Assembly: GCF_000011805.1 (NCBI RefSeq)
Contig: NC_006840.2
Length of the DNA stretch: 32,000 bases
Source: Aliivibrio fischeri ES114
Lineage (GTDB): Bacteria > Pseudomonadota > Gammaproteobacteria > Enterobacterales > Vibrionaceae
Reading direction: 5' to 3' (one strand)
The notes under the pieces are model-generated. The model saw nothing but the letters and a program-made list of their open reading frames with translations, did not search any database and was not told where the DNA came from. This document shows, piece after piece, positions 2,427 to 19,662 of the stretch. Position 1 is the stretch's first letter. The number at the start of each line of letters is the position of its first letter. The translations under genes and the position numbers were made by a program.

Positions 2427-3734
2427 ATGAAAAAGTCTATTCTAGCGTTATCAGTTCTTAGTGTTTTTTCTTTTGGTGCGACTGCTTCACCTGAATTAGG
2501 AAACGGACAGTTAGGTTTTACTGCTGAAGATAAAGTTGAGTTTGTTAATGCCAATACAAATATGAACCTTATTGTTCAGCGTTCTGCTGATGGCTCAGTA
2601 AAACTAATTGATGGTGGAACTGGTCAAATTTATACATATGCTCAAATTTTAGACATGACGGAAGAGGCTAGAAAAACAGTTAAAAATGCAGCTCCATCTT
2701 ACGATTTCAAAAATGGTGAAATGTTTGATGACGCAATAAAATCCCGAATGAATAATGACGATAAATATGAGTTTACTATCGAACAAAAAGTTTCTGCTAT
2801 TAATAAACTATCTACATCTAGCAACGAATTTTTTATTCAAGATGGAAAACTTTTTGTAAAATCGGGAAAAAATGGAGAAAGCAGAGAAGTTTCTCAAGAC
2901 GAAGTAAAACTTGCTAAACAGTTAATAGTAAAAGAAGCTCAAGAACGCTCAGAACCTATTGATGGAATTAATCCTCCAGCAACAGATTTACCAAATATTC
3001 CGGTAACCCGTGAAGAAGCAATTCAATATATTGTTGATGGTAACGTTCAAGTTAAGAATGCTAAAAACCTAGATAAAGCAGTAAAGTTTCGTATGAACAA
3101 TGAAGATAAATATGAATTCACTGCTGAACAAAAAGTTGCCGCTGTAAATAAGCTTACAGGTAATGATCGTTATAGCGTTCAAACGTCAGCTGATGGCTCA
3201 AAACATCTAATCGATAATGAAACGGGCCATGCTTATACTCCAGAACAAGCTGAATCAATGGCGAAAGAAGCTCGCACAAAAATTATTGCTGAAGCGCAAA
3301 AACGTGCGGAGACTACTCCTCCAGAAGGAAGCCTTCCGCCAGTAGAAAATCCAGAACAACCACCAGTAATTGAACCTGATAATGAAGCAGTAAAAAAAGC
3401 GGTACAAAACTTAGCATCACATGGATACTCTTCTCAAGCTAACATCGACACTAACGCAGCAAACATAGACGAGCTATTTAACATTACCGCTGATTTACGT
3501 GAAGATTTAGAATTACAAGGTGCTCGTAACATGGCGGCAATATCTGCTCGTGCATTTACGACTGAAGAGGGTGAGTTTTCTGTAGGTGTTGGCCTTGGTG
3601 GTTCTGGTTCAGAGAACGCAATGGCAATTGGTGGTGCATACCAAATCAATGCTAACTGGTCAGTAAACACAACAATCGCATTCGATACAGGTTCAAATGC
3701 TGATTACGGTGTTGGTGCTCACTACTCTTGGTAA
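2427..3734 (+). CDS. short trimeric autotransporter adhesin (YadA-like C-terminal anchor) with atypical repeat passenger
   Basis: 435 aa. Signal peptide MKKSILALSVLSVFSFGATA|SP. The last ~95 aa (NMAAISARAF...GVGLGGSGSENAMAIGGAYQINANWSVNTTIAFD...YGVGAHYSW) fit the 4-strand YadA anchor pattern, ending in an aromatic-S-W. Internal duplicated modules are described in the findings. Confidence 0.75.
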   Translation: MKKSILALSVLSVFSFGATASPELGNGQLGFTAEDKVEFVNANTNMNLIVQRSADGSVKLIDGGTGQIYTYAQILDMTEEARKTVKNAAPSYDFKNGEMFDDAIKSRMNNDDKYEFTIEQKVSAINKLSTSSNEFFIQDGKLFVKSGKNGESREVSQDEVKLAKQLIVKEAQERSEPIDGINPPATDLPNIPVTREEAIQYIVDGNVQVKNAKNLDKAVKFRMNNEDKYEFTAEQKVAAVNKLTGNDRYSVQTSADGSKHLIDNETGHAYTPEQAESMAKEARTKIIAEAQKRAETTPPEGSLPPVENPEQPPVIEPDNEAVKKAVQNLASHGYSSQANIDTNAANIDELFNITADLREDLELQGARNMAAISARAFTTEEGEFSVGVGLGGSGSENAMAIGGAYQINANWSVNTTIAFDTGSNADYGVGAHYSW

Positions 3735-3877: not shown

Positions 3878-4606
3878 TTACTTACCCGATTTTTCTGCGA
3901 TTTTAGCTTCAACCATAGGTGCTAACTTTTCATAAGGTAAATAGCCCGGAAGAAGTTGGCCATCAATCAACATAGCAGGGGTTCCTCGCACGCCTAAATC
4001 CGTAAATAATTGGTAGTTCTTCGCTACCATATCTTGAACTTCGTCATTCGTTGATACGTACTTTTCAGCATCATTCGCTTTTGCGACCTTCATAATAGAG
4101 CGCGTATTATGAATTCCCGGTTTACTTAATAAGGTTTCACTGATCTTATTAAATTTGTCTGGGCTTTCCTTCCACACTCTTAATGCAAAGGTTGCCGAGT
4201 TAGCCGGATTTGAACCCTCTTTAAGTGGTACATAAATGTTTATCACTTTAAGATCATCAGGGTGCTCTTCGACCAACTTCATTAATACTGGGTCTAATTT
4301 TTTACACCAAGGGCAACTTAAATCCGTTAATACAACAATAGTTAATTTAGGATCTTTCGCACCAAACCACGGTAGATTTGGGTTGTTGTACATATAATCA
4401 TGATAATCTGCCAACGTTTTTTCATACTTACCCTGTTGAGCAATATACATAGCCAAGCTCTCATGAAGGCTATCAATAATAGTAGGGTTGTCTTTAAGCA
4501 TTTTATTAATATCTTCCACTTTCTCCGATTGAGTCATTGCAGAAGCAAGAGGAGAAAATAAACATGCCATTACCAGTGTTGTGATTAATTTCGTTTTAAA
4601 TTTCAT
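3878..4606 (-). CDS. periplasmic DsbA-family thiol:disulfide oxidoreductase (ScsC/DsbG-like)
   Basis: 242 aa. Signal peptide ending PLASA. Thioredoxin-fold active site LSCPWCKKL. cis-Pro region GVRGTPAMLI. Last gene of the DsbD-like cluster. Confidence 0.8.
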   Translation of the reverse strand: MKFKTKLITTLVMACLFSPLASAMTQSEKVEDINKMLKDNPTIIDSLHESLAMYIAQQGKYEKTLADYHDYMYNNPNLPWFGAKDPKLTIVVLTDLSCPWCKKLDPVLMKLVEEHPDDLKVINIYVPLKEGSNPANSATFALRVWKESPDKFNKISETLLSKPGIHNTRSIMKVAKANDAEKYVSTNDEVQDMVAKNYQLFTDLGVRGTPAMLIDGQLLPGYLPYEKLAPMVEAKIAEKSGK

Positions 4607-4630
4607 TTTTTATTGTCCGTATATATTCGT

Positions 4631-5134
4631 TTAGATAAGCCATAAGCGAGCAAGTAATCCCATCGGAGTTGTTATCCCCGTGGTGATGTTTTTTATCTCA
4701 CCTTTATCAATAATGACGATGGTTGGGGTCACTTGAATGCCCCATTTTCTTGAAATATCGCCACGCGTATCATTCATATTTTTAAAAGTGTAATCGTGAG
4801 ATCTCATATAACCAGAGACTCTTCTGTCCTCTCCAGAACTCGTACTAACACCAACAACTTGATAAGTATCGCTGAACCAATTAATGGTTGGCGTCACGAA
4901 TCGACACGCTGCACACCACGTCGCCCAGAAATACACCACCACCGGCTTTTCTTGGCTCATAGCGATAACATCAATCGCTTCGCCTGTTGTACTTATTCCA
5001 ACAAGAGCAGGGGCAGTATTCGCTGGCATATCTTTAGTTCTCCACGCATCAACAGTAAAACTAAAAATAATGATCACCAGAAGGTAAATCAGTGTCTCTT
5101 TACCCCAGCGCTTCATTTTTTGTCTTTTCCCCAT
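4631..5134 (-). CDS. membrane-anchored TlpA/ScsD-like thioredoxin
   Basis: 167 aa. N-terminal TM anchor LIYLLVIIIFSFTV. Active site FWATWCAACRF. Its ATG shares one nucleotide with the TAA stop of the upstream DsbD-like gene (TAATG), which suggests translational coupling. Confidence 0.8.
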   Translation of the reverse strand: MGKRQKMKRWGKETLIYLLVIIIFSFTVDAWRTKDMPANTAPALVGISTTGEAIDVIAMSQEKPVVVYFWATWCAACRFVTPTINWFSDTYQVVGVSTSSGEDRRVSGYMRSHDYTFKNMNDTRGDISRKWGIQVTPTIVIIDKGEIKNITTGITTPMGLLARLWLI

Positions 5135-7230
5135 TACGGTTTATTTCCTGCTTTTTTAATCGCATCCATAACGACTTTTTCATTCAAAATAACCGGAAGT
5201 TCGATGCCGTTTGGCGCACTTGGGCCATAAACCACATTAAATGGCACTCCAAATCGTCCATGTTCTTGTAAGTAAGAGGTGATTTTTTCACTCGGAACCG
5301 TCCAGTCTCCCTGCATAGGTACAACATTGGCGCTGTTTAACTCGCTATAAACCGGCTCTTGAAGCAACACACCAATTTTGTTTGCCTTACAGGTCACACA
5401 CCAATCAGCGGTAACATCAACAAAGACCACTTTTCCTTCATCTACATATTGCTGAATAGATTCACTCGATAACGGAACCCATTTAGGCTCTTCAGGCAGT
5501 AGATCAGTTGACGTCATGCTGTCTATCACGGTGCCAAAGCCAAATGCGATAGCAAATAAGATACTTAACCAGCCTGCCGCTTTCTTACTATGAACTTGAA
5601 CGGTTCGCAGCAAGATTACGCCACCCGCAATTGCTGCAATGACATAAATCCAAAACTCTGATAGATGGTTAGAGAGTAAGTTCAGCAACCAAATGCTAGT
5701 AATAAGCATCATTGCACCAAAGAGATACTTAACCTTACTCATCCATGGGCCGGGTTTAGGTAATGAAAGAGCAATGGATGGGAAGAGGGCAACCAATATC
5801 CATGGCAGAGCCATACCAAGCGCTAACGCAGTAAAAATGCCGTACATGGTTGGGATGTTTGTAGCTAAAGCAAAAGCAACCGCAGTACCTAAGAAAGGGG
5901 CGGAGCAAGGGGTAGAAAGTAAGGTGGCAAACATACCTTGAATAAAATGACCAAAGTACGAATTGTTTCCTTTTGATGCGATCCAAGTGTTGGTATTTGA
6001 GGATAATCGAATTTCAAACAAGCTCAGCATATTGGCACCAAACAATGCCGTAATAAGCGTCATGACTCCAATAAACCACGCACTCTGAAATTGAATGCCC
6101 CATCCAATTGCATTGCCTGATAACTTAAGTACCACTAAGAACGAAGCCAGAAGCCAAAAAGAAAAAACAATCCCACTTGCAGAGGCTAAAAACTGCAATT
6201 TAATCTGTTTCTTCTCAAGACCTTGAGCTGAAATAACACTGCTTAACTTCATTCCCAATACAGGGAAAACACAAGGCATTACGTTTAGAATCAAGCCACC
6301 AAATAAAGCAAATAAGATCATTTTCAAAATAGACTGCAATCCATTGCTGCTTGTGATTACCCCATCACTAATGCTTGCTGGTTGCTCTGCTATAAACTCA
6401 CTGTCTTTTAAAGTAACACTGATATTTTCACCAGTTAAATCCGGCGTTCCCATCCAACTGCTTACATCAAATGTTGCGGTAATATTGTTACCATCTACAT
6501 CGATCTTTGGACGAGAAAAATTAGCGTCTTGCATTTCATCTGACGGACCATCTACTAAAACATCAGGCGTTATCCATCCCATTTTTTTGCTTGCTGTCAC
6601 CTGAAGCTGCATTTTTGTGGCATCCCACACTGCTTTTACATCACTGAGCAGTGCAGACTCTTTTGGAACCTGACTTAACCCTTGGGCGTAAACGTGCATC
6701 GCTTCTTTAGAAAGCGTTAAATCAGCAGGAGTGAATGTAAGTTCAAATGGGTAGTCAGTCAGAACACAAATAGTGGTGCAAGATGACAAAGTGAGATCAG
6801 CCTTAAAGGTAACCGGCTTATTGAGATCATCAATATGAAGTGTCATAGGGAAAATCACACTTCCCTTATACCCTAAGGTTTCAATACCAAGTAGATCGAA
6901 GCGTTTCGGATATGGCCAATACCAATCGATACTGCGAATATTTTGAGAATCCTCCCAAGTCATGCTCGGGGCAATACCACCTTCTCCTGGGCTTCTCCAA
7001 TACGTTTTCCAATCACCCGCTAAGCGAACCTCTAAGAATCCAGCAACGGTTTGATCGACTTTATTGATTTGCCCAGTAAGAACAAAACGAGTTTCAATCG
7101 GAGTGTGGTTTGAATTTTTAAGCCACCCAGTATGTGGGGTTTCGGCTTGAGCAACGGATATAAATACGCTGCACAACATCGCAAATAGCCCAAATAGGAC
7201 CATACGTGTTGTGATTACTGATTTTTGCAT
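5134..7230 (-). CDS. DsbD/ScsB-family transmembrane protein-disulfide reductase
   Basis: 698 aa. Signal peptide, then a large periplasmic N-domain (SSCTTICV). CcdA-like TM core with both conserved Cys segments (NVMPCVFPVLG and LSTPCSAPFLG). C-terminal thioredoxin domain VDVTADWCVTCK. Confidence 0.9.
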   Translation of the reverse strand: MQKSVITTRMVLFGLFAMLCSVFISVAQAETPHTGWLKNSNHTPIETRFVLTGQINKVDQTVAGFLEVRLAGDWKTYWRSPGEGGIAPSMTWEDSQNIRSIDWYWPYPKRFDLLGIETLGYKGSVIFPMTLHIDDLNKPVTFKADLTLSSCTTICVLTDYPFELTFTPADLTLSKEAMHVYAQGLSQVPKESALLSDVKAVWDATKMQLQVTASKKMGWITPDVLVDGPSDEMQDANFSRPKIDVDGNNITATFDVSSWMGTPDLTGENISVTLKDSEFIAEQPASISDGVITSSNGLQSILKMILFALFGGLILNVMPCVFPVLGMKLSSVISAQGLEKKQIKLQFLASASGIVFSFWLLASFLVVLKLSGNAIGWGIQFQSAWFIGVMTLITALFGANMLSLFEIRLSSNTNTWIASKGNNSYFGHFIQGMFATLLSTPCSAPFLGTAVAFALATNIPTMYGIFTALALGMALPWILVALFPSIALSLPKPGPWMSKVKYLFGAMMLITSIWLLNLLSNHLSEFWIYVIAAIAGGVILLRTVQVHSKKAAGWLSILFAIAFGFGTVIDSMTSTDLLPEEPKWVPLSSESIQQYVDEGKVVFVDVTADWCVTCKANKIGVLLQEPVYSELNSANVVPMQGDWTVPSEKITSYLQEHGRFGVPFNVVYGPSAPNGIELPVILNEKVVMDAIKKAGNKP

Positions 7231-7242
7231 CTGTGTTTCCTT

Positions 7243-7282
7243 TAAAAAATAAATATACGTCGAATGTTGTTAAAACATTCGA
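7243..7282 (-). terminator. hairpin (possible terminator/attenuator) between the small membrane-protein gene and the DsbD-like gene
   Basis: 9-bp perfect stem TCGAATGTT (7260-7268) / AACATTCGA (7274-7282). On the minus strand it is followed by CGTATATTTATTTTTT. Confidence 0.45.
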
Positions 7283-7286
7283 TTAC

Positions 7287-7673
7287 TTATTCTCTAAAAA
7301 CACACAACTTGAGGTGAACCCGCCTTCCTTTATGAAGAATAGGCTCGGTAAATGAAGAGGTATAGCTGAATGATAAACACAACCCAATAACGAGAAGAAC
7401 CGTGAATATCTGAACAATAAGCGCATGATCGCCAACTTGATGTTGTTCGAAATGGATTAAATGTTCCGATAACTCACACTTATCACCTAATCCATTTTTG
7501 TCTTGCTGTGTTTCCGATACTTGTTGCACAGTATCAGATACTGAACTATCCAACGGTAAAGAACACGAACTCAATAAACCAATATTATTTGCCGCACAGA
7601 CAAAGATAACCCAACACACAAGAATGAGGGGCCATCTAAAAAAATCATGTCTGTAAAATGCAGATTTCATCAA
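7287..7673 (-). CDS. small two-TM membrane protein with Cys/His-rich loop (ScsA-like position)
   Basis: 128 aa. Hydrophobic segments WPLILVCWVIFVCAA and ALIVQIFTVLLVIGLCLSF flank the loop DKCELSEHLIHFEQHQVGDH. Same strand as, and directly upstream of, the DsbD-like gene. I recognise no family signature. Confidence 0.5.
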   Translation of the reverse strand: MMKSAFYRHDFFRWPLILVCWVIFVCAANNIGLLSSCSLPLDSSVSDTVQQVSETQQDKNGLGDKCELSEHLIHFEQHQVGDHALIVQIFTVLLVIGLCLSFSYTSSFTEPILHKGRRVHLKLCVFRE

Positions 7674-7754
7674 CTGGTTAACTACAAGAATAAGGAACGA
7701 GTGCAGTTAGGACACACGCTCCTTTAAATAGTTTCCTAGTTTACATATTTAAAT

Positions 7755-8351
7755 TTAATGAGCGTGGTTATGATGATGGTGATGACCACAACCACATGTT
7801 GGTGCTGCAACCACGCTTTGTAATGGATGGAATTCCATTTTTTCTTGCAGTGCTTCAGGTGTTAATGAATTTAATAGGTGCATATTCTCGACATTTACCA
7901 CATTAACATCACCTAATTCACGTTGTGTTTTTGCTACTTCAATAAACTGACAACTTAACGCTTCAGGTAACGTAAATTCACGAATTGCACACAATAAATT
8001 GGTTGCTGTATCTACCGCAATCATAGAAACAGATAAGGTGTTATCTTCAGAAAGTGAGAAATATTCATCTGGAATTGCTGATGAATTAAATTGCATTTCA
8101 AAAGCTAAATCACCAAAAATAACAACAAGTAGGCAACCACCTTTTTCTGATGATACTAAACCTAATTGAGCACCGCTTTGACCTAATAGTGTTTGTTCAT
8201 CAGCGGTAATATTGCTAAGTCCAACATACAGTAAATTAGGTAAATCATTACGAAATAGTTCAAGCATCGCACCGTCACCCTCTTGAAACGGGTGGTTTTC
8301 AAACGTTTGTCCAACTTGAAATTGTGGAGTGTTGTGTTCAGCCATAATCAT
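7755..8351 (-). CDS. cytoplasmic protein of unknown function with C-terminal Cys/His-rich metal-binding tail
   Basis: 198 aa, no signal peptide. C-terminus APTCGCGHHHHHNHAH. AAGG RBS; the second ATG (8345) has better spacing than the first (8351). Confidence 0.7.
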   Translation of the reverse strand: MIMAEHNTPQFQVGQTFENHPFQEGDGAMLELFRNDLPNLLYVGLSNITADEQTLLGQSGAQLGLVSSEKGGCLLVVIFGDLAFEMQFNSSAIPDEYFSLSEDNTLSVSMIAVDTATNLLCAIREFTLPEALSCQFIEVAKTQRELGDVNVVNVENMHLLNSLTPEALQEKMEFHPLQSVVAAPTCGCGHHHHHNHAH

Positions 8352-8610
8352 TACCTTCTTAATCTGTATCTCAATTTATACCGCTAAGTGTAATCCTTAT
8401 TTGAAAAATAACTATCCTAGTAAAAAGCAAATCACTATTACTTATTTGTAATAATAACCGTGACAAATAATTTATTATTAAGAATATCAATAATCATCAT
8501 CTACAGAGATCAAGAATTTTATTCAAATCTTCTTAAAAACGAGAAAATTCATTCACATTTTGAATATTAACTTATACAGTACGCACAAATTATTTTTATA
8601 AATTAACATC

Positions 8611-9936
8611 GTGCTGCTAGGTACTTCTTCAACACAAATCTTTTATCACTTGTTAGATCTGGATGATGAACAACAGCAAAAAGTGCTCGACACACTTAAA
8701 GAAAATCAACCAGAAATCCATCAAGAGATCACAGCGTTACTAGGTTCTTCCCCATCAGAGCATTTCTCCGATCTGCTCGGCTTTCACGCGCAACAAACTT
8801 GCCATTTTGATTGGGATTTAAGCAATCAAACGATTGATAAATACCAATTACGTGATGAGTTGGGTCGTGGAGGAATGGGCGTTGTTTATTCTGCACATCG
8901 AGCAAATGGTACTTTTGAACAAGAGTTGGCTATTAAGTTTATTCAGCCAAGTTTTAACAACCTACTCGATAAAAGAGCGCTATTTGAAGAAGCTCAACTT
9001 TTAGCTCGTTTAAATCACCCCTACATTGCAAAAGTATTCGATGGTGGTGAGCACCAAAATCTTGTTTATGTCGTAATGGAAAAAGTGATTGGTTCAACGC
9101 TTAACGATTTTTTAGTAATGCATGAACTATCCAAGGCACAAAAATTACACCTATTTAGTCAAGTTTGTAAGGCTCTCGAACACGCACATCAGCACAATGT
9201 ACTTCATGCGGATCTTAAGCCTGAAAACATATTGATTGATAAGCAACACTCTCCCAAATTAATCGACTTTAACCTTACACAAAAAGTAAAAGAGAGCACG
9301 ATTGAGCCTCAACAAGGCGTGCTTGCCTTTAGTGAGCAATTTGCGAGCCCTGAACAAAAATCAGGTGGGTTTCTTACGCAACAGAGTGATATTTTTTCAC
9401 TCGGAAAGATCTTACATTTGCTATTTCCAGTAACAAATGAAAATGATGATATTCACTGCATCCAAACGAAAGCGATGCAAGAATCATTAGATAAGCGCTA
9501 TCGCTCGGTTTTAGAACTGCGATTAGATATCGAAGCGGTTATCGCTTCTCGTCCAATTAGCTTAAAGCAGCATCGTCCATGCTATACATTAACGTGCCTA
9601 TTAAAACGTAAGCCTATTCCTTCATTTTTATGTGCATTATTAATGATTACAGGCATCGCATTTTCAAGTTTATTAGCACTTAAAAACCATCAGTTAGAAC
9701 AAGAAAAAATCGTTGCTGAAAACATGATGTATGAAGTGACGCAATTACTGTTTCACTCAAAAGGGTCAAGCGTCTCTCAAGCATCGATTAACTCGATGTT
9801 AGAGCTTACTCGTCGCCGAATTTTATCTAATCCAGATTTACCAGCACATATAAAACAGCGAATGTTATTGGCCATGATGACGCCGATCCCAACAAAACAG
9901 AAATTAACCACTCATCATTTCACTAATAATAATTAA
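8611..9936 (+). CDS. pknT: membrane-anchored Hanks-type Ser/Thr protein kinase (PknT-like)
   Basis: 441 aa. Gly loop GRGGMGVVY, LAIKF (catalytic Lys), HADLKPENILID, DFN, SPEQ. One TM segment (FLCALLMITGIAFSSLLAL), then a tail of about 85 aa. GTG start at 8611 is uncertain. Same operon as an ECF sigma factor of the kinase-activated type. Confidence 0.85.
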   Translation: MLLGTSSTQIFYHLLDLDDEQQQKVLDTLKENQPEIHQEITALLGSSPSEHFSDLLGFHAQQTCHFDWDLSNQTIDKYQLRDELGRGGMGVVYSAHRANGTFEQELAIKFIQPSFNNLLDKRALFEEAQLLARLNHPYIAKVFDGGEHQNLVYVVMEKVIGSTLNDFLVMHELSKAQKLHLFSQVCKALEHAHQHNVLHADLKPENILIDKQHSPKLIDFNLTQKVKESTIEPQQGVLAFSEQFASPEQKSGGFLTQQSDIFSLGKILHLLFPVTNENDDIHCIQTKAMQESLDKRYRSVLELRLDIEAVIASRPISLKQHRPCYTLTCLLKRKPIPSFLCALLMITGIAFSSLLALKNHQLEQEKIVAENMMYEVTQLLFHSKGSSVSQASINSMLELTRRRILSNPDLPAHIKQRMLLAMMTPIPTKQKLTTHHFTNNN

Positions 9937-9965
9937 ATTCTCGTTTAGAAAAGGACATTCATAAT

Positions 9966-11393
9966 ATGAAAAACAAACCGTTTTCAGCTCTTTTATTGAT
10001 GCTATTTCTAGGCACTCCTTCTGTTGCTCATGCAGAAATAAAAACGGGATATTTCATCGACTCACCAGTTACTGGTCTTTATTACCAAACAAGCTCACAA
10101 CTGTCTGGAACGACAAATAAAGGGGCTTTTGAGTATCGAACTGGTGATGTGGTGCGTTTTTTCTTAGGTACTGATGAAAATGGTTATCTTATTAGTACAC
10201 TATCAGGCCAAGAAGTAGTTACCCCAACGTTAGCCACCACAACACCAAGTAAAAGTATTAATTTAACTCGGTTATTGCTCTCTCTTGATAGTTCACCAAG
10301 CAACCGAGATGAAATCACTCTAGCAAGTAAGATGCTTTCTAACGTGGATTTTCAACAACGACTTAAACAAATCGATCTCAATGTATTAGACAGTTCTTCT
10401 AAAGAGCTAAATATTGATCTCGTTTCAGTAAAAGAAGCCGTTGAACACTTAAATCTAAGCCAGCAATACATCGAAGATAATTTCACTTCCGATGACATTA
10501 TTTATCAGCCAGTCAATAAACATCTAAAACACATCATCATTAAGAAAAAAGACTGGCAAGGTCGAATGTGTGCTTACGACATTAAATATCAGCATCACCC
10601 AAGATATCGCCCTTCTTTTGGCAATATGGAATATACGGTGACAAATACTCACCTTATCCAATACCCAAGCGCTGGTGATTACTTTAATGGCTGTGAATTA
10701 GATACCAGTCTCCCTGTGATCGCAAACAAAAGTCCTATCTCTGAATTTGAAGGCTTTGGCGGAATGATCGGATGTGCCCCAACAGGATGCACACGTAATG
10801 ACCTTAATGGGTTTACGTTAGACGACTATAACGACGAAGGTGACTGGAAATACCGAACCATCGCTATGAATTTTGATCCTGAAACTGAATTAATGATGGA
10901 AAAAATTCAAGGGTTAGGTCCTAACGAACACGTGCGCCATCAAAATAGAGGTGAACAAATTGCTTTTATTTATCCGATAGATAAAGAAGAAAAAATCCCT
11001 TTTGAAGGCATATGGCAACAAACGCAATATCACGGTCAAAAAATCGAAAAACACTGTTTATTAGTCAAAAATCATCAAGTTCTTAAGCACCCAAAAACAG
11101 GTAAAACCTGCTCAAAAAATGAAGAACAGTACACATTGAATGTGACTAAAGACTACGCCGATATGTGGTGGGTAAACAATAAAGATAATAATGCTCGACT
11201 AGAACAAATGAATTTATTGGTTCGTTGGTATCTCAACGGAAATCAGGTTCAACACACAACATGGGAGTATTTACCCGCAGGTAGAGATTGGAAGCAAGGG
11301 GTTCTCTATCGCTATCGACAAACACTTCAACGCCAGCCAAATGGTATTGAAACTATGGATACATTTTCTGTCTCTGAATTTAGCAAAATATAA
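9966..11393 (+). CDS. secreted protein of unknown function (kinase/sigma operon)
   Basis: 475 aa. Signal peptide MKNKPFSALLLMLFLGTPSVAHA|E. 29 nt after the kinase gene and 11 nt before the sigma gene. Several Cys, Trp/Tyr-rich. No motif I recognise. Confidence 0.75.
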   Translation: MKNKPFSALLLMLFLGTPSVAHAEIKTGYFIDSPVTGLYYQTSSQLSGTTNKGAFEYRTGDVVRFFLGTDENGYLISTLSGQEVVTPTLATTTPSKSINLTRLLLSLDSSPSNRDEITLASKMLSNVDFQQRLKQIDLNVLDSSSKELNIDLVSVKEAVEHLNLSQQYIEDNFTSDDIIYQPVNKHLKHIIIKKKDWQGRMCAYDIKYQHHPRYRPSFGNMEYTVTNTHLIQYPSAGDYFNGCELDTSLPVIANKSPISEFEGFGGMIGCAPTGCTRNDLNGFTLDDYNDEGDWKYRTIAMNFDPETELMMEKIQGLGPNEHVRHQNRGEQIAFIYPIDKEEKIPFEGIWQQTQYHGQKIEKHCLLVKNHQVLKHPKTGKTCSKNEEQYTLNVTKDYADMWWVNNKDNNARLEQMNLLVRWYLNGNQVQHTTWEYLPAGRDWKQGVLYRYRQTLQRQPNGIETMDTFSVSEFSKI

Positions 11394-11404
11394 CGGAATT
11401 AGTC

Positions 11405-11971
11405 ATGAAAACAACAACAGAACTGACACGCATTATTCAAGATTGGCAAGCAGGAAATAAACAAGCTGAAAACCAGTTATATCAATTCGCTTATTTACAG
11501 CTCAGACATATCGCTCAAGAAGAGCGAAAACGTAACGCTGAAAAATTCGGCCAACATAATGATGTTCTGACTGACAGCGTAAATAGCACAACCGCTTTGA
11601 TTCACGACGCTTACCTTAAGCTTTCAAACTCAGAGCTAAGTGATGTAAAAACCAAACGCGATTTCTTTTTAATGGCCACCAAAGTGATGCGCCAAATCTT
11701 GATCGACAATGCCCGTTCACAACAAGCTCAAAAGCGTCAGGCGCTAACCTCAATTCAAGATGATAATGATAAATTTGAACAATTGATCATTATGGATAAA
11801 GCACTTGATAGCTTTAGTGTGCGCTATCCCCGCCAATCAAATGCTCTAAAGTTAAAATATCTTATGGGTATGAAAAACAATGAAATTTGCCAACTTTTAG
11901 AATGCAGCTCAAGCCTAATAGAGAAAGATTTAAAATTCTCTCGCAGCTGGCTTCAAACTCGTATGATGTAA
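11405..11971 (+). CDS. ecfP: ECF-type RNA polymerase sigma factor, kinase-activated class (EcfP-like)
   Basis: 188 aa. N-terminus TELTRIIQDWQAGNKQAENQLYQFAYLQLRHIA is typical of the kinase-linked ECF group. The sigma2.2 region reads DSVNSTTALIHDAYLKL, so the acidic DAED motif is replaced by NSTT, with Thr at residue 63 (nt 11591-11593). C-terminal sigma4 HTH MKNNEICQLLECSSSLIEKDLKFSRSWL. Confidence 0.85.
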   Translation: MKTTTELTRIIQDWQAGNKQAENQLYQFAYLQLRHIAQEERKRNAEKFGQHNDVLTDSVNSTTALIHDAYLKLSNSELSDVKTKRDFFLMATKVMRQILIDNARSQQAQKRQALTSIQDDNDKFEQLIIMDKALDSFSVRYPRQSNALKLKYLMGMKNNEICQLLECSSSLIEKDLKFSRSWLQTRMM

Positions 11972-11977
11972 TTACTA

Positions 11978-13546
11978 ATGAAAAAAAAAGCACTCATTCT
12001 ATTATCAATAAGTACTATTGCTTTAAGTGGTTTTTGGTTGCGCTCTGCTATTTCGTCACCATCCGAACATACCGTGATAGCAGAACCAATTCCATTACCA
12101 ACAATACAAAACACGCCATCTCGTGAAGCATTTTTATCTAGCTTTCATAAAGAAAAAACACAGCTAAATACAGCGCCAAAAAAGGAACGAGATAATGATG
12201 AAACTACAGAGTATTCAGAGAAAATAAATACTCGAAAAACATCGCCTCAAGAAGATAGAGAAGCTGATTTAGAATATAACGCAGATAAAGTACAAAGCCT
12301 CCCACAGTTGAGCTCGACTCAAAAAACAGGAAGTGTTGGCAACCAAAAACCCAAAGTGGATAACGACATACAGCAGCAGTTACAAACCATGATGTATGCG
12401 TGGAATTTAACGCAATCCACACCGGTAAATTATTCATTTAATATCAACGGTCTTTTTTATGATGAGGAGCATGACTTTATTACCACGAGAGTTCGCTTCT
12501 CTTATCCAGGACTTTCTTTAATCAATAGAGGCGAGCTAACCTTAGTTGGTTCCCCTATCGAAAGTGATAAACCAACTCAATTCATTATTTCGGCAAAAGA
12601 TGACTATCATGGAAATAAAGAAAGTGCATGGACTCATGTAAGCTTTGATTTACCCTCAACAGAAGAGTCAAACTCAAGCGTTGAACACCCATTAATTGGG
12701 CATACCCTTTATCGATTAGAAACAACAAATCATTTTGCTGGCCATAGCTATGAGTATGAAGTTGTTTATTGTGAGGCATTTAAATTCATTAATAACCTCG
12801 CTTATTATGCGGCTTCAACCAATAAAAGAACCTGCCCTACAGAAGAATCGTTATCCGAAGTCGGTACCTATGCCATTGATGACAAACACCTCATTGTAAC
12901 AAGCAGCTATTCAGCTTTTGATGCAGAGCAACGTTGGAAAATACTGCATTCCTATGAATCTAGCTTTAATAAAGGTGAAAGCCTACTTACCACGATTCAT
13001 AATGGAAAAGAGTTTGAGACCTACACAATATTAAAAAATAAACGAGCAATGGAATCTCGTTTAAATGTCGTTACTGGGCAAACCCCTTATCAAATGGAAA
13101 AATTTGAATATTTCTTCCCTACAGATAAGCAAGGAAACTACATTAAAGGCACTGCGGGAATGTATATGATGGACTCTAGATTAGTTAATCCAAACTGGTT
13201 CAGCCTAGATTCTGATCTCAATATTCATTCGGATACGCATAACATGACGTGTGATTTTGTTGTCGCTTTTTATCAAAGTTCAACCATGGGTGGTCAAGGA
13301 GCAAGTGGTATAAGTATAACGTCGAGTTCCGTAGCCCCTAACTATATTGACCCACTAGAATGCGAAGAAAGAATTAACCCAAATAATGGCAAACGCTATG
13401 CGTATCTTGACTTAGATTACTCACCTTATGATGAGTTTGTTGATGGGGGGATCTATAGCTACATTTTAAAACCCAAACCAGAATACGCTCATTTAGTGGA
13501 AGAGTTTAAAGTTAACCTAATCTATCACGCTCCAAATTTAAGCTAA
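11978..13546 (+). CDS. exported protein of unknown function (last gene of kinase/sigma operon)
   Basis: 522 aa. N-terminal hydrophobic signal/anchor MKKKALILLSISTIALSGFWL. A low-complexity polar linker of about 100 aa, then a globular region. Starts 6 nt after the sigma gene. Confidence 0.75.
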   Translation: MKKKALILLSISTIALSGFWLRSAISSPSEHTVIAEPIPLPTIQNTPSREAFLSSFHKEKTQLNTAPKKERDNDETTEYSEKINTRKTSPQEDREADLEYNADKVQSLPQLSSTQKTGSVGNQKPKVDNDIQQQLQTMMYAWNLTQSTPVNYSFNINGLFYDEEHDFITTRVRFSYPGLSLINRGELTLVGSPIESDKPTQFIISAKDDYHGNKESAWTHVSFDLPSTEESNSSVEHPLIGHTLYRLETTNHFAGHSYEYEVVYCEAFKFINNLAYYAASTNKRTCPTEESLSEVGTYAIDDKHLIVTSSYSAFDAEQRWKILHSYESSFNKGESLLTTIHNGKEFETYTILKNKRAMESRLNVVTGQTPYQMEKFEYFFPTDKQGNYIKGTAGMYMMDSRLVNPNWFSLDSDLNIHSDTHNMTCDFVVAFYQSSTMGGQGASGISITSSSVAPNYIDPLECEERINPNNGKRYAYLDLDYSPYDEFVDGGIYSYILKPKPEYAHLVEEFKVNLIYHAPNLS

Positions 13547-13562
13547 AAAAATCATAGAGATA

Positions 13563-13600
13563 AATAAAAAAAGAGCGAAGTGTGTCGCTCTTTTTTGTTT
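13563..13600. terminator. bidirectional terminator between convergent genes
   Basis: AAAGAGCGA (13570-13578) / TCGCTCTTT (13585-13593), with an A-run upstream and a T-run downstream. Confidence 0.8.
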
Positions 13601-13613
13601 GGCCTATGATAGG

Positions 13614-14477
13614 CTAAAAACTCCAGAGTGCCTGTAAACCAGTACTGAATGTATGGGTATCCGCCTCTGGCAGCGTTGCATAGCCATTTTTGGTTTCGCG
13701 CTCTGTACAAACACCATCAACCATGGTGATGCACGTTTCAACTAGCACCGCTTGCTTGTCTGTCTCAAAGCGTTTTTCATAACCTAGCATCGCATACCAA
13801 CCAAGGTGTAACCCTTTCATGACTTCGTAGCTAATGGTTCCTTCAATTGAAACTCTCATTCCAAAATCATTAAACGTATTATCTTCAAACTTAGTATTTT
13901 GAGTCACACTATAAATTGGGAGACCTAATACTGCACGTCCGCTCACTTTCCATTTCTTATCACTAAACAGTAAGCCATTATCGTAAGCCACACCCAAATC
14001 AACAAAAATATCGGTCGAGGTTTCTTCCCATGTGCCATAAAACGCTTTATTGGTGAACCCATTATGGTTTCTCATACCGTAGCGAGTATACGTTTGGTAA
14101 GTAAGTGCCGGACCACCGATAACTCGCCACTCGTCAGTAAGTTTGTAGTGCAGTTGAATGTTGGTCGCCGTTTTTAAATATTCAAACTTATTGGTTTGCA
14201 TTAATTGACCATAATACTTCCAATCTTCTTGTGCACTTTGAGGAGAAAATGAAGCCAAGGCATCAATAGAAAAATCAAACTTATCGTTAATGTAATACAA
14301 GCCACCACTGTTCAAAACAGGGTTTGTGATCGTCACCTTAGATTGTGTTCCACCATAATACTCTTGATACGTTACGTTCTCTAAACCAAACGTAAAGTAA
14401 GAATACCCATAGTTTTTGTCTCCCTCATGCGCCATTGCAAAACACGGCAATAAACCTAACCAGTATATTTTTTTCAT
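13614..14477 (-). CDS. outer-membrane beta-barrel protein, family unassigned
   Basis: 287 aa. Signal peptide MKKIYWLGLLPCFAMA|HEG. Alternating aromatic/polar strand pattern throughout. C-terminal OMP signature ...GLQALWSF with a terminal Phe. Confidence 0.75.
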   Translation of the reverse strand: MKKIYWLGLLPCFAMAHEGDKNYGYSYFTFGLENVTYQEYYGGTQSKVTITNPVLNSGGLYYINDKFDFSIDALASFSPQSAQEDWKYYGQLMQTNKFEYLKTATNIQLHYKLTDEWRVIGGPALTYQTYTRYGMRNHNGFTNKAFYGTWEETSTDIFVDLGVAYDNGLLFSDKKWKVSGRAVLGLPIYSVTQNTKFEDNTFNDFGMRVSIEGTISYEVMKGLHLGWYAMLGYEKRFETDKQAVLVETCITMVDGVCTERETKNGYATLPEADTHTFSTGLQALWSF

Positions 14478-14704
14478 TTTTCGTCCCTAGATGTATTTTG
14501 GGGTGCGAAATATGAGTGATTCATTCCAAAAAACCAATAGTGCTATTGATAAAAAAATAAAATAAATTTTACGGTTTTTTTCCTATTTTCCGTGTCTTGT
14601 TTTGTTTTTTGAACCGGCGTAAAAGTGTCGCACTTTTGAGTTTTACAAATAAATAAACATGTATTGAGGGAAAGGCTACCCTCATCAAAAAGGATTGAGA
14701 CAGA

Positions 14705-17476
14705 ATGAAAAAGGTAAGTTTATTAGCAGCGTCAGTGGCACTAGCGTTAGTAGGTTGTGGCGGTTCTGATGGTGGTTCAGACACCAATACAGGTACACCT
14801 TCAGCTGGCGGTATTGTTATTACTGGTTTTGATGGCTACTTTAAGAATGCGGTTGTGTTTGATGACATGCCTGTAGCAACACGTACATCAACAGTTGGCA
14901 AACTAGATTCTAACGATACTATTTTTGGTTTAACTGATGGAAATGGTAAAATTACTCTTCCAAAAAATACTGAAATTAAAGGTACTCTGAGTTTACAAAC
15001 CATTACTCCTAATGGCGATGTACAAAAGATGCTGATCGCTCGTGATCCAAGTAAATTTGCTGGCATCTATACCATTGATATGGATCATCCAACTCAAGCA
15101 ATGGCACACGAAGTTTCTTTCCGTACTCTTTCTGGTGAGAAAATCATCTCTCCTTTAACAGACCTTGTAGCAGCCAAAGCAGGTACAAATCCAACACCAG
15201 CTCAAATCAAACAAGCTAAAAAAGAAGTAAATACAGCTCTTGGATTGGATGAAGAAAACACTGATGTATTTTCTGATGTCATTGCTGCTGGCGATCATGC
15301 TCTACACAAAACAGCACAAATCTTAACTGAATCAAAAGTAGAAGCTGGTAATAACTATACGCCAACAGCAGCTATCGCTATTGCCGAAAAAGCGACAGAA
15401 ATAGTAAAAGATCCTGAAAATGCAGATAAACTTGATCAACCTAACTTCAAACCAACGATTCCTGTAGACAATACAGGAACAGTCGGTGAAGTGATTATTA
15501 ATAATAAGTTAGTCGTTAGCAAAACTATTTATGACAACCTTATCAAACAAGTAAATAGCGCAGATAAATTTACTGATGTTACAGAAATTTCTCTAATCGA
15601 TTTACCTATCGCTGAACTATTTGTAGATGCTGATAATAAAAATGAAATTATCCCAGAAGTAAAAATCAGTACCGTAAATGGTAGCGATGTTACTGCAGAA
15701 TTTAACATTACTAAAACAGCGACAGAGTTAACTATTTCAGCAAAAAATATCACAACTGTACGTGATACTTATATTGTGACATTAAGCTCTACAGATATTG
15801 CTGTTAATGATAAAAACATGGGGGTAGTTAGTACGACTTTTAAAATCAAAGTTGATCTAGAAAATTCAGCACCAACATTAAACCTACAAGTTAAAAATAC
15901 ATTACAAGAGTGGTTAGGAAGTTTAGAACTACAACAAAATGTTGCTGTATTTGATGAAAAAATGCGTATCAGCGACTTATTTGAAGATGAAGACAAGTTA
16001 ACTTATAGCGTTTATAGCTCTGTTGCAGGTTTAGAGTTTGCACTTGCTCCTTTTAATGATGGCGGTACTGAACTTGAAATATTAGGTAAGCCAAATCATG
16101 CGTACCCAGCAGGTGAAACGATTACAATTTCTGCGACTGATGGTATTAATACTGTTTATGAAGAATTTACATTAGCTGCAATTGCAGAAGCCGGCATTAC
16201 GATTAATGAAATCAAATATGTGGCACTACAAGAAAAAATTACTGATATAACCTTGAAAAAAGGTACCCCTATAATAGAGGCTCAATTAAATATTACAGAA
16301 CTGTTCAATACTGAAAGCGTAAACGGCTTAGGTGCTATTGAATATTATGCAGGCTTAGAAGATAAAGCTCCTGGACCTAATGGTGAGAACCTTCATGAAG
16401 GTTTCACTACTGTAGATGGTGTTAACGTTAATGTTGATACTAATGGCACCCTTACTATTTATGGTGAACCAAACGAGATTATTAAAGGTGGTTACTTCTA
16501 CCTTATGGCAGGTGTAAATGGTGACACCTCAGACGAAATTTCATCTAAAATGGTGAAAATAACTTTATCTGATGTTCAACCTGCGGATGGTGGCGAAATA
16601 ATTCCACCAGAGACAAGCCTTAACCTACAAGATAAATATTTATATAAAATAGAAAGCGGCAATTTCAATGGCGTATCGGGTCTATTCTGTGACATTCGCT
16701 ATTATGATTCTTCTAATAAAAAGTTCTATATGAATATAAGAACAGAAATCAATAAAGAACTTTGTACTGTTGTGAACACAACTCTTTCACCAAGCAACCA
16801 ACCAGAATTATTTGAAGAAGTTGCTGAATATACACTTCAAAATGGAATTTTCACTTTTAGTTATAATGATGGTTCTGAGCAATTTACAACCACTCATTCA
16901 CCTTTACAATTTGATATAGGTTATGACTCTCAAGTATCACCATTTAGCCACTATGTTGTTAGAGCTAATGAGGTTGGGATCGATAATGATGGTGAATATG
17001 AAAGTGCTGAACTTTACTCTCTATATCTTGGAGCAGAGGCCGTTGAGGAGGTTATTGCAGTAAAAACTACCCATCAAAGCGGCAACGACCATACAACTGA
17101 ACCATCAAACTTCAGAAATCAAATGATACATTACACAGATAACAATGAAGTGTCTGAATTCAAAGTCGAAGCTCAAATGCGATCTTTGGATTTCTGTGAT
17201 GGAACGTTAGAAGGCTCAATGTGCGAACAAGGTTTGGCTGATGCTGACCTTATTATCAAAGATATGAGCTGTTCTGAATTTCAAAAAGCCTACAACACTC
17301 CATATGTGAACGGTGAATACTTCATTAATGAAGGTTATATTGAAAACGGTATTAATAAGTGTGGCATCGATTTTTATAGTGAGAGTGCTATTACATCAGG
17401 ATTTTATACTTTCCGAGCTTCACCTAAAAATGAAAATACTCATGAAGAAATTAACTTCAGTTTCAAAAAAGACTAA
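14705..17476 (+). CDS. large surface lipoprotein with three cadherin-like/Ig-like repeats
   Basis: 923 aa. Lipobox LALVG|C (Cys18) followed by a Gly/Ser/Asp linker. About aa 296-622 holds three tandem ~100-aa modules with the cadherin-like pattern (e.g. DLFEDEDKLTYSV...ELEILGKPN...GETITISATDG). The C-terminal ~300 aa are Cys-containing and unassigned. Confidence 0.8.
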   Translation: MKKVSLLAASVALALVGCGGSDGGSDTNTGTPSAGGIVITGFDGYFKNAVVFDDMPVATRTSTVGKLDSNDTIFGLTDGNGKITLPKNTEIKGTLSLQTITPNGDVQKMLIARDPSKFAGIYTIDMDHPTQAMAHEVSFRTLSGEKIISPLTDLVAAKAGTNPTPAQIKQAKKEVNTALGLDEENTDVFSDVIAAGDHALHKTAQILTESKVEAGNNYTPTAAIAIAEKATEIVKDPENADKLDQPNFKPTIPVDNTGTVGEVIINNKLVVSKTIYDNLIKQVNSADKFTDVTEISLIDLPIAELFVDADNKNEIIPEVKISTVNGSDVTAEFNITKTATELTISAKNITTVRDTYIVTLSSTDIAVNDKNMGVVSTTFKIKVDLENSAPTLNLQVKNTLQEWLGSLELQQNVAVFDEKMRISDLFEDEDKLTYSVYSSVAGLEFALAPFNDGGTELEILGKPNHAYPAGETITISATDGINTVYEEFTLAAIAEAGITINEIKYVALQEKITDITLKKGTPIIEAQLNITELFNTESVNGLGAIEYYAGLEDKAPGPNGENLHEGFTTVDGVNVNVDTNGTLTIYGEPNEIIKGGYFYLMAGVNGDTSDEISSKMVKITLSDVQPADGGEIIPPETSLNLQDKYLYKIESGNFNGVSGLFCDIRYYDSSNKKFYMNIRTEINKELCTVVNTTLSPSNQPELFEEVAEYTLQNGIFTFSYNDGSEQFTTTHSPLQFDIGYDSQVSPFSHYVVRANEVGIDNDGEYESAELYSLYLGAEAVEEVIAVKTTHQSGNDHTTEPSNFRNQMIHYTDNNEVSEFKVEAQMRSLDFCDGTLEGSMCEQGLADADLIIKDMSCSEFQKAYNTPYVNGEYFINEGYIENGINKCGIDFYSESAITSGFYTFRASPKNENTHEEINFSFKKD

Positions 17477-17491: not shown

Positions 17492-17525
17492 AAAAAACCC
17501 CGGTACTCGCCGGGGTTTATTTTAT
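17492..17525 (+). terminator. rho-independent terminator after the lipoprotein gene
   Basis: AAAAAA-CCCCGG (17498-17503), loop TACTCG, CCGGGG (17510-17515), then TTTATTTTA. Confidence 0.85.
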
Positions 17526-17796: not shown

Positions 17797-18144
17797 GTGA
17801 ATAGTAATACTCTAGAAATAAATGAAGAGTTATTCACTGATGAAGTAGATTCAACGTTCAATAAAGTTATCGATATTTTACGAGCTGAGAATATATTTCC
17901 AGACAGTGTTCAAAAACAAATGCTTTATTCTCATTTAAAAGCAATGGTAATTCGTTCTCATACTAATGAACCATTACCAGAAGTTGAAATTGAAATGTTT
18001 GATGAAATATCTAAGTCATCACACAAATTAGCTGAAGATGTCGTGAAATGGTTTCCGGCATTAGCATACGAAGAAACATATTTATTATCTGTTCACTTTG
18101 AAGTGGCAAAAGAAAACGAATTAACTGAAGAATTAGGAGCTTAA
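17797..18144 (+). CDS. stand-alone PRD-domain protein
   Basis: 115 aa, GTG start with a GAGGA RBS. Helical with several His (SHLKAMVIRSH, SSHK, SVHFE). Matches the small PRD domain-containing protein that heads SFCGS/DUF4310-4312 clusters (recognised from memory of annotation patterns). Confidence 0.65.
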   Translation: MNSNTLEINEELFTDEVDSTFNKVIDILRAENIFPDSVQKQMLYSHLKAMVIRSHTNEPLPEVEIEMFDEISKSSHKLAEDVVKWFPALAYEETYLLSVHFEVAKENELTEELGA

Positions 18145-18145
18145 T

Positions 18146-18508
18146 ATGGCTGATGTAAAAGTAGTTATCGGTGACCGTCTAGGTAAAGGACAAAAAGTAG
18201 GTATGGGTGTTGAAGCTGCAGGTGGTTCTGTAACAGTAATCCCAGGCATGGCAGCAGATATGAAGCTTGGTGATATCATGAAACAAGAAGAAGCTGACTT
18301 CGGTATCTCTTTTTGTGGCAGTGGCGGTGCTGGTGCTATCACGGCTCAAAATAAATACGGTTACAAAGCAAAATATGGTATGCGCTCTGTAGAAGAAGGC
18401 GTTACTGCAATTAATGAAGGTTACAACGTTCTTGGGTTTGGTTTTATGGACCAGGAAGAACTAGGTAAAAAATTAGTTGAAGCCTTCGTTAAAAAATACA
18501 GAAGTTAA
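18146..18508 (+). CDS. glycine-rich SFCGS-family protein
   Basis: 120 aa. Contains the eponymous motif GISFCGSGGAGAITA (Cys57, nt 18314-18316). The ATG is 1 nt after the upstream stop, and the GGAG RBS sits inside the upstream gene. Confidence 0.85.
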   Translation: MADVKVVIGDRLGKGQKVGMGVEAAGGSVTVIPGMAADMKLGDIMKQEEADFGISFCGSGGAGAITAQNKYGYKAKYGMRSVEEGVTAINEGYNVLGFGFMDQEELGKKLVEAFVKKYRS

Positions 18509-18514
18509 TTATTT

Positions 18515-18811
18515 ATGAAAGAATCTATTACAACAACCGTAACGGTCAGTGGTAATGGAAATACAAAACAATCAGCTTTCAGCTCTGCATTAAGTAATAT
18601 TCAAAAAACCATTTTAAAAGATAACGAACAAGTTATTTTACGAATTGAACCTGTTGATGTGAAATTAATTAATGCAGAGAAAAAAGAAAGAATTGAAAAG
18701 TTTATGTTTTTCTTTTTACCAAGAAATAAAACAACCTACTCAGTCACGATTGATGTCACTGTTAATGTCACAGTAATTAATATTGACCAATTAGATTTTA
18801 AATCAATATAA
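18515..18811 (+). CDS. DUF4312-family small soluble protein
   Basis: 98 aa, beta-rich (TTTVTVSG..., YSVTIDVTVNVTVINI), with no His or Cys. Its position after the SFCGS gene is as in conserved clusters. Confidence 0.7.
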   Translation: MKESITTTVTVSGNGNTKQSAFSSALSNIQKTILKDNEQVILRIEPVDVKLINAEKKERIEKFMFFFLPRNKTTYSVTIDVTVNVTVINIDQLDFKSI

Positions 18812-18867
18812 ACACCTATTTATTTAATTAGCACTTAATTAAATATACTAACGGAAGGTATATATAG

Positions 18868-19644: not shown

Positions 19645-19662
19645 TAAGTCTGGAGTTTTAAA

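Follow-up and report, generated by a model that had tools for sequence, protein, structure and literature searches.

A probable orthologue of the PknT/EcfP kinase-sigma factor system in Aliivibrio fischeri ES114, with a predicted ECF-type promoter and lipoprotein target gene

The region spanning positions 8611 to 13546 of the DNA analyzed here, a stretch of 32,000 nucleotides from Aliivibrio fischeri ES114 (contig NC_006840.2; hereafter the window), is very probably the orthologue of the Vibrio parahaemolyticus PknT/EcfP system, for which we also propose a target promoter and a mechanism. Systems of this kind are known, their membrane kinase reportedly activating a sigma factor via one phosphorylated threonine, and the earlier judgement that the locus is described rather than novel matches this assignment. 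What is newly seen is that the module exceeds four genes, because a conserved promoter of the ECF type and a lipoprotein gene travel along with it; an outer-membrane-like gene also accompanies it in many species. The comparison across species indicates that a likely dedicated target promoter and its lipoprotein gene adjoin the operon.

A preliminary description of this DNA had reported a four-gene operon coding for a membrane Hanks kinase, a secreted protein, an ECF sigma factor, and an exported protein. The four open reading frames were found in place, all on the + strand and separated by gaps of 29, 11, and 6 nt, and the product types were borne out by Pkinase and PF07638 matches, a transmembrane segment, and signal-like N termini. 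The operon therefore stands as claimed, but the unit is larger than these four genes, since the conserved promoter and the lipoprotein gene also belong to it. The features of the locus are as follows.

8552-8580, + strand: candidate operon promoter of the sigma-70 type (TTCACA, 17 nt, TACAGT), from a consensus scan only, weak match
8611-9936, + strand: PknT-type Hanks Ser/Thr kinase, 441 aa, AAW86991.1, GTG start; Pkinase match, 56% identity to the V. parahaemolyticus kinase
9966-11393, + strand: secreted 475-aa accessory protein with a signal-peptide-like N terminus; 56% identity to a V. parahaemolyticus 490-aa protein
11405-11971, + strand: EcfP-type ECF sigma factor, 188 aa, AAW86993.1, VF_2498, rpoE5; PF07638, TIGR02999, 79% identity to EcfP
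11585-11596, + strand: codons of S61-T62-T63-A64, uncharged residues in place of the acidic sigma2.2 motif at the DAED position (MAFFT and hhalign alignments)
11978-13546, + strand: exported 522-aa accessory protein (AF2 model, hhalign); 42% identity to a V. parahaemolyticus 524-aa protein
13567-13596, no strand assigned: palindromic terminator-like hairpin between convergent genes (stem of 12 pairs with an A run on one side and a T run on the other)
13614-14477, - strand: 287-aa outer-membrane-like protein with a signal peptide and C-terminal ...LWSF; conserved as a neighbour but optional
14565-14603, + strand: predicted EcfP-dependent ECF-type promoter (motif scan, conserved in related loci)
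14705-17476, + strand: 923-aa lipoprotein, AAW86996.1, lipobox LVGC, VP0053 homologue and predicted direct sigma target
17495-17518, + strand: hairpin resembling a terminator that follows the lipoprotein gene (10 pairs, of which 6 are G-C)

Vibrio, Photobacterium, and Aliivibrio all have loci with these four genes in this order, and most of 60 species-level genomes keep it. The gene for the 287-aa protein, which gave no family match in Pfam or NCBIfam, occupies the same place and orientation in about 25 of 61 related loci from three genera and is not present at the V. parahaemolyticus locus. Rfam gave no matches in the window.

The sigma factor is VF_2498 by identity with ES114, and its name rpoE5 comes from the 2008 annotation (PMC2330054). 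It matched Sigma70_ECF (PF07638, 1.2e-31, residues 5-187) in a Pfam search, being of the type with sigma2 and sigma4 only, and it scored 185.9 bits against a cut-off of 126 with TIGR02999 in an NCBIfam search. Its full-length identity to a V. parahaemolyticus protein of 190 aa, which has STTA and a threonine at position 63, is 79%. In MAFFT and hhalign alignments, the positions equivalent to DAED (DVPD in E. coli RpoE) fall on residues 61-64, STTA, so that proper alignment did not bring a canonical acidic sigma2.2 motif opposite DVPD. The replacement of DAED noticed earlier is thus real, but its register had been placed at NSTT, residues 60-63, and has to be corrected. The codons read AGC ACA ACC GCT, and the ACC of Thr63, the third position of STTA, lies at 11591-11593 as described before. 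This register agrees with the published description of V. parahaemolyticus EcfP as a protein with STTA whose second threonine is phosphorylated (PMC8999054, PMC8103513). VP0055 has been identified as EcfP, a member of ECF43 in which the second threonine of STTA is the target of PknT (PMC8999054, PMC7826278), and STTA, T63, and ECF43 are given for VP0055 in the literature taken together (PMC8999054, PMC8103513, PMC7826278, PMC13147305); the window sigma would belong to ECF43 by its orthology to VP0055. Both Thr62 and Thr63 are invariant among the sigma orthologues (62 of 62), just one of which has an acidic residue at position 64, and Thr63 is the predicted phospho-acceptor. Thr115, in the linker, is a threonine in 42 of the 62. 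PDB sequence searches with the family profiles of the sigma factor and of the 475- and 522-aa proteins returned nothing meaningful.

The claimed lack of an anti-sigma factor was upheld, since no anti-sigma family match was obtained among the neighbours of the sigma gene (Pfam, NCBIfam), no HxxxCxxC (ZAS) motif occurs in any frame of positions 7200-14750, and the accessory proteins have no cytoplasmic domain, the 475-aa protein being fully secreted and the 522-aa protein having a few residues at most before its hydrophobic helix. The sigma factor therefore departs from the canonical anti-sigma-regulated ECF type, with STTA in place of the acidic motif and the anti-sigma factor undetected. The tight linkage of both accessory genes to the sigma gene might suggest that the two exported proteins act as an unconventional anti-sigma or partner system that mainly controls the sigma factor, the primary substrate of the kinase being a different one. 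We regard this as very improbable, because both proteins lack a cytoplasmic domain with which to reach the sigma factor, variant related loci keep the kinase and sigma genes yet lose one or both accessory genes, and an invariant Thr-Thr pair in the place of the acidic motif fits control by the kinase.

The kinase (Pkinase, 3.4e-37, Pfam search) has 56% full-length identity to the 450-aa kinase of V. parahaemolyticus and consists of an N-terminal region (residues 1-75), a kinase domain (about 76-300), a single hydrophobic transmembrane segment (337-357), and a C-terminal tail of 84 aa (358-441) that we infer to be periplasmic. Its locus tag is VF_2496. The GRGGMG Gly-loop, K109, H-A-D201-LKPEN, N206, DFN, and SPE are all present, and 55-60 of 60 orthologues keep them, apart from the position that separates His from Asp, which varies (Ala in 47, Gly in 12); these intact catalytic motifs predict a competent kinase. 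The kinase domain also scores up to 2e-50 against the PADLOC PD-T4-6 models, which raises the question of whether it is an anti-phage defence kinase beside which the sigma gene is incidental. This seems very unlikely, as the matches do not go beyond the generic kinase domain (residues about 72-272), none of the other five proteins was matched in PADLOC, and the gene lies in a chromosomal module conserved with the sigma gene across three genera rather than in a defence island. The orthologous sigma-phosphorylation switch put forward in the preliminary description is consequently supported as well as sequence alone allows, with orthology, synteny, and STTA with Thr63 all in agreement.

Downstream of the operon, a bipartite motif was found at 14565-14603, AATTTTACGG TTTTTTTCCTATTTTC CGTGTCTTG, with a -35-like box TTTACGG (14568-14574) and a -10-like box CGTGTC (14591-14596), and 16 nt separating ACGG from CGT. 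No second site in the 32 kb reaches 8 bits, the threshold of the scan, and the pattern occurs once in the window compared with 0.00 occurrences expected; no other ECF-type motif of at least 8 bits was found before the kinase gene or elsewhere in the window. Among the related loci (about 1 Mb searched), 52 of 61 have one or two such sites, which, two weak cases apart, follow the sigma gene on its own strand. Wherever the downstream gene could be called, a lipoprotein gene with the conserved signal sequence MKKVSLLAASVAxALTGCGG follows, with one weak exception. The A. fischeri 923-aa lipoprotein is 36% identical over residues 1-499 to the 767-aa V. parahaemolyticus protein. Its tag, VF_2501, was inferred from accession order.

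We infer that the promoter at 14565-14603 depends on the sigma factor and that the lipoprotein gene is its target. It is conceivable, although improbable, that the module is orthologous as proposed but that this site is an operator or promoter through which another regulator or sigma factor controls the lipoprotein gene, given that the -35-like box is atypical in lacking the AAC common in ECF promoters and that an A-rich tract and a CTATTGATAA element just upstream of the motif may be bound by other factors. However, the motif tracks the sigma gene through rearrangements, directly following it in loci without the 522-aa gene and being doubled where the lipoprotein gene is doubled, and nearly all sites are on the sigma strand. 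Moreover, both boxes and the 16-nt spacing are kept while the spacer sequence drifts, as in a promoter, and diverged paralogous sigmas (45% identity) go with an altered -10-like box, CCCTGTG. These observations argue for a promoter read by the sigma factor of the module. The lack of a site upstream of the kinase gene speaks against autoregulation of the operon through a motif of this type.

The 475- and 522-aa proteins, each with an N-terminal signal-like sequence, gave no family match in Pfam or NCBIfam, and their two families are unrelated. The AF2 model of the 475-aa protein (pLDDT 84, pTM 0.82) had no significant fold match in the PDB, and its N-terminal domain (about residues 18-170) is widespread, occurring in 3653 representative proteins. 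In the model of the 522-aa protein, an N-terminal hydrophobic helix (3-25) is joined by a disordered linker (26-119) to a folded domain (120-522), and this domain is paralogous to the C-terminal half of the lipoprotein (hhalign against the lipoprotein family, 99.9%, E 3e-37). These relationships allow a more tentative reading, which we think rather unlikely, namely that the locus is a self-contained envelope unit of six genes with a dedicated promoter, whose main local output is a large surface or periplasmic lipoprotein and whose sensor-side proteins are built from the domains of that output, the 522-aa protein resembling its C-terminal half and the 475-aa protein perhaps sharing its N-terminal domain. 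If so, the kinase would be sensing the state of the product that it induces, through a circuit of feedback or ligand sharing, and the widespread domain at the N terminus of the 475-aa protein would be an unnamed sensor or adaptor that works outside the cytoplasm.

Taken together, these results are consistent with the following mechanism. The operon would probably be transcribed from a housekeeping-type promoter, as a weak consensus match suggests. The RNA polymerase-binding surface of sigma2.2 carries STTA instead of acidic residues, and by analogy with EcfP the sigma factor would be inactive until the kinase phosphorylates Thr63 and thereby supplies the missing negative charge. The extracytoplasmic tail of the kinase is short and helical, and the 475- and 522-aa proteins, judging from conserved linkage, probably assist it in the periplasm by delivering the signal or modulating it. 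The active holoenzyme would then initiate at TTTACGG ... CGTGTC and express the 923-aa lipoprotein, and presumably further target genes elsewhere in the genome, while the operon itself is apparently not autoregulated via the promoter motif. A switch at a single site may not be general, given that Xanthomonas citri EcfK is still functional with T51A and that its linker phosphosites matter (PMC13147305).

Only a handful of systems, namely EcfP, EcfK, and an ECF43 member from Hyphomonas, have experimental evidence that phosphorylating the sigma factor itself activates it. In its light-organ niche A. fischeri, a symbiosis model that lends itself to experiments, meets antimicrobial peptides of the host, and an EcfP-type switch would therefore be directly testable there. 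The analysis adds a promoter motif that is precisely defined across species. It also predicts a first target gene, which offers a ready reporter of kinase activity along with a matrix for tracing the other members of the regulon, and it recognises one accessory protein (522 aa) as a paralogue of the target lipoprotein. Our search of the literature for the system and its genes in both species (VP0053-57; VF_2496-2501, rpoE5) brought up reviews, the EcfK paper, a note on the structure of VP0053, and the rpoE5 annotation, and nothing else of relevance; the three gains would be merely confirmatory if the V. parahaemolyticus paper already gave the same promoter and target.

When compared with known systems, the sigma factor resembles that of the E. 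coli RpoE/RseA pair in having two domains, sigma2 and sigma4, and in the bipartite -35/-10 style of its predicted promoter. Canonical ECFs have an acidic sigma2.2 (DVPD in RpoE), a co-encoded anti-sigma factor, and usually autoregulation, whereas the window has STTA, no anti-sigma factor found, and no motif before the operon. The X. citri PknS/EcfK pair (ECF43) likewise has a Hanks kinase beside an ECF43 sigma with a conserved threonine at sigma2.2, but EcfK keeps one acidic residue (QATE) and STTA has none; EcfK also depends on a second phosphosite, located in the linker between sigma2 and sigma4, and it controls a type VI secretion system (PMC13147305). The closest likeness is to V. parahaemolyticus PknT/EcfP (VP0057/VP0055, ECF43). 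The neighbourhoods differ, with a DsbD/Scs-like cluster in A. fischeri and LacI and gluconate-utilisation genes in V. parahaemolyticus; a LuxR site has been reported between VP0057 and VP0058 (PMC2628434), and the upstream neighbour is a different one in A. fischeri. Polymyxin resistance has been reported as a phenotype for V. parahaemolyticus only (PMC8999054). A. fischeri has the extra outer-membrane-like gene between the operon and the lipoprotein gene, and its lipoprotein is longer (923 versus 767 aa). In agreement with the layout claimed earlier, kinase, secreted protein (490 aa), sigma factor, and exported protein (524 aa) follow in identical order in V. parahaemolyticus, with the lipoprotein gene next in both species, and the alignment to VP0057-VP0054 gave identities of 56, 56, 79, and 42% in that order. 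EcfP, which is also encoded without an anti-sigma factor, has the identical DSVNSTTALIHDAYLK segment with Thr63.

The preliminary description had placed four co-directional genes in one operon, and the ORF listing agrees, with intergenic gaps of 29, 11 and 6 nt. The kinase, the sigma factor and the lipoprotein encoded farther downstream are identical to the A. fischeri ES114 proteins AAW86991.1, AAW86993.1 and AAW86996.1, respectively. The sigma gene is VF_2498, named rpoE5 in the ES114 re-annotation (PMC2330054), and a literature search for VF_2498 and rpoE5 found no functional study. The features considered here are the following.

8552-8580, plus strand: weak sigma-70-like promoter match 5' of the kinase operon
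8611-9936, plus strand: kinase gene (protein 1)
9966-11393, plus strand: gene for the 475-aa protein (protein 2)
11405-11971, plus strand: sigma gene (protein 3)
11978-13546, plus strand: gene for the 522-aa protein (protein 4)
13567-13596, unstranded: hairpin, boundary of transcription units
14565-14603, plus strand: bipartite promoter-like motif, 102 nt 5' of the lipoprotein ATG
17495-17518, plus strand: hairpin, boundary of transcription units

Protein 3 belongs to the ECF sigma factors (PF07638, 1e-31; TIGR02999, 186 bits, cut-off 126 bits), and uncharged residues replace its acidic sigma2.2 motif, as previously proposed, although in a different register. The codons AGC ACA ACC GCT at 11585-11596 encode S61, T62, T63 and A64; both MAFFT and hhalign set T62, T63 and A64 opposite V, P and D of the E. 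coli RpoE DVPD motif, and MAFFT sets S61 opposite its first D. Therefore, the motif is STTA (61-64) rather than NSTT (60-63). The assignment of Thr63 itself stands, this residue being encoded by the ACC triplet that precedes GCT and occupying the third position of STTA. T62, T63, L65, H67 and Y70 are invariant in 62 orthologues. According to reviews, EcfP of V. parahaemolyticus carries STTA, and its second Thr is phosphorylated by the kinase PknT (PMC8999054, PMC8103513). By analogy, the A. fischeri sigma factor would be phosphorylated at Thr63 and would be inactive when unphosphorylated, and the system may be tied to polymyxin.

The best-named relative of the sigma factor is a V. parahaemolyticus protein of 190 aa with the same DSVNSTTALIHDAYLK segment; VP0055 is EcfP, of group ECF43 (PMC7826278). 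Identities to V. parahaemolyticus are 79% for the sigma factor, 56% for the kinase, 56% for the 475-aa protein, 42% for the 522-aa protein and 36% for the lipoprotein, and the gene order there is kinase (450 aa), 490 aa, sigma, 524 aa and a 767-aa protein. Judged by these alignments and by locus order, the operon is orthologous to the PknT/EcfP system and shares its four-gene layout, as had been claimed. When one genome of each species was scanned, 60 loci were recovered from Vibrio, Photobacterium and Aliivibrio, and the four-gene order is kept in the majority. The module is flanked by other genes in each genus, which indicates that it moves as a unit.

Protein 1, a Hanks kinase by its Pkinase match (3e-37), has intact catalytic motifs: a Gly-loop GRGGMG, K109, HADLKPEN (D201), DFN and SPE. 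These are kept in 55-60 of 60 orthologues, except that the position separating the catalytic His from the Asp varies (Ala in 47 orthologues, Gly in 12). The enzyme belongs to the non-RD kinases and has DFN rather than DFG; both features are kept in 58-60 of the 60. Its single hydrophobic segment (337-357) is followed by an 84-residue C-terminal tail (358-441), which is probably periplasmic. Conservation of the tail is similar to that of the juxtamembrane region, which is compatible with a protein partner outside the membrane. The kinase domain also gives strong scores against the PADLOC PD-T4-6 models.

The absence of an anti-sigma factor was borne out: Pfam and NCBIfam gave no anti-sigma family match, HxxxCxxC is absent from every frame of 7200-14750, and neither accessory protein (475 or 522 aa) has a cytoplasmic domain. 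Both carry N-terminal export signals, match no Pfam or NCBIfam family and would take part in sensing. A word-based search found members of the 475-aa family in Vibrionaceae only. NCBI and UniRef commonly name these homologues 'chromosome partitioning protein ParA'; since no Pfam family, whether ParA or another, matches the window protein or its homologues and the window protein has a signal peptide, the name looks like a propagated misannotation. The AF2 model of the 475-aa protein is of high confidence (pLDDT 84, pTM 0.82) but has no significant fold match in the PDB. Its profile gave 3653 matches among 1.84 billion representative proteins, mostly covering the N-terminal ~150 residues alone. 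This domain (residues ~18-170), for which there is no Pfam model, is N-terminal in a diverse range of secreted multidomain proteins, including some giant ones, and usually follows directly on the signal peptide. The 522-aa AF2 model shows an N-terminal helix, a disordered ~95-residue linker and a folded region (120-522) with Ig-like PDB matches alone. By hhalign, this folded part and the C-terminal half of the lipoprotein family are homologous (probability 99.9%, E 3e-37). The 475-aa N-terminal sandwich is weakly linked to the lipoprotein N-terminus (E 2e-4, probability 48%), and the 475-aa and 522-aa families are unrelated to each other. An AlphaFold analysis of VP0053, the V. parahaemolyticus lipoprotein homologue, described Ig-like calcium-binding domains and two lipocalin-like barrels (PMC10734457).

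The preliminary description missed a linked promoter-like motif and its predicted target gene. Regions upstream of homologues of the lipoprotein gene (14705-17476, the next gene on the plus strand) share AATTTTACGGtTTTT, a variable spacer and TTTyCGTryCTTG, with exactly 16 nt from ACGG (14571-14574 in the window) to CGT (14591-14593). A pattern search gave one match against 0.00 expected, and a weight matrix with a threshold of 8 bits found no second site in the 32 kb. Across ~1 Mb of related loci the motif occurs once or twice in 52 of 61; apart from two weak sites, every copy lies 3' of the sigma gene and on its strand. The gene after it, callable at all but three sites, encodes a lipoprotein starting MKKVSLLAASVAxALTGCGG, with one weak exception. 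Duplicated lipoprotein genes each have a separate motif, and in loci that lack the 522-aa gene the motif lies immediately 3' of the sigma gene. In a 16-species alignment both boxes are invariant and the spacer is free, which argues for a promoter signature and not an operator, and diverged paralogous sigma factors (45% identity) coincide with an altered -10-like box. Taken together, these results suggest that the motif is a promoter read by this sigma factor and the lipoprotein its local target. Autoregulation of the operon is unlikely because the weight matrix found no motif 5' of the kinase operon, where the weak sigma-70-like match stands alone.

An A-rich tract with CTATTGATAA lies immediately 5' of the -35-like box (14540-14564), and a conserved GTAAAA box ~20 nt 3' of the -10-like box (14618-14626); either may serve as UP element, regulator site or leader element. 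A second, diverged copy of the system occurs in V. fortis and related strains (L054, L055, L058 and L060), with a sigma factor 45% identical, the kinase gene directly adjoining the sigma gene, no 475-aa gene, and a motif variant ...CCCTGTGyCTTG 5' of a lipoprotein gene.

Between the operon and the lipoprotein gene lies a 287-aa outer-membrane-like gene (13614-14477, minus strand), present in ~25 of the 61 related loci in three genera and absent from the V. parahaemolyticus locus; its product has no family assignment. The minus-strand genes at 3878-8351, seen in Aliivibrio loci only, comprise an Scs-like trio (DsbD-like, 698 aa; thioredoxin-like, 167 aa; DsbA/G-like, 242 aa), then an ORF of 128 aa with two TM segments and a protein of 198 aa that ends in CGCGHHHHHNHAH. 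At 17797-25468, 'conserved hypothetical' families EF_0829, EF_0830, EF_0832 and EF_0833 accompany an EF_0837-like amidohydrolase, a SelA-like PLP enzyme, a KDGP aldolase and a PRD/EIIA/Mga-type regulator; the set resembles a catabolic cluster under PTS regulation, with no relation to the sigma module. As listed, ORFs 20320-21507 and 21371-22594 share 137 nt. Farther out are a TetR-type protein with a LuxT_C domain and a YadA-anchor autotransporter (1786-3734), and a cNMP-binding/CBS/DUF294 nucleotidyltransferase followed by an RNase T-like exonuclease (26846-29452).

The analysis adds a corrected motif register, an extended module, a promoter prediction and the paralogy between accessory protein and output lipoprotein. 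The system was correctly identified as a known kind in a new organism, and novelty is therefore modest. Work on X. citri EcfK shows that ECF43 members can require a second phosphosite, in the linker (PMC13147305); Thr115 of the window sigma factor, a position occupied by Thr in 42 of 62 orthologues, is a candidate equivalent.
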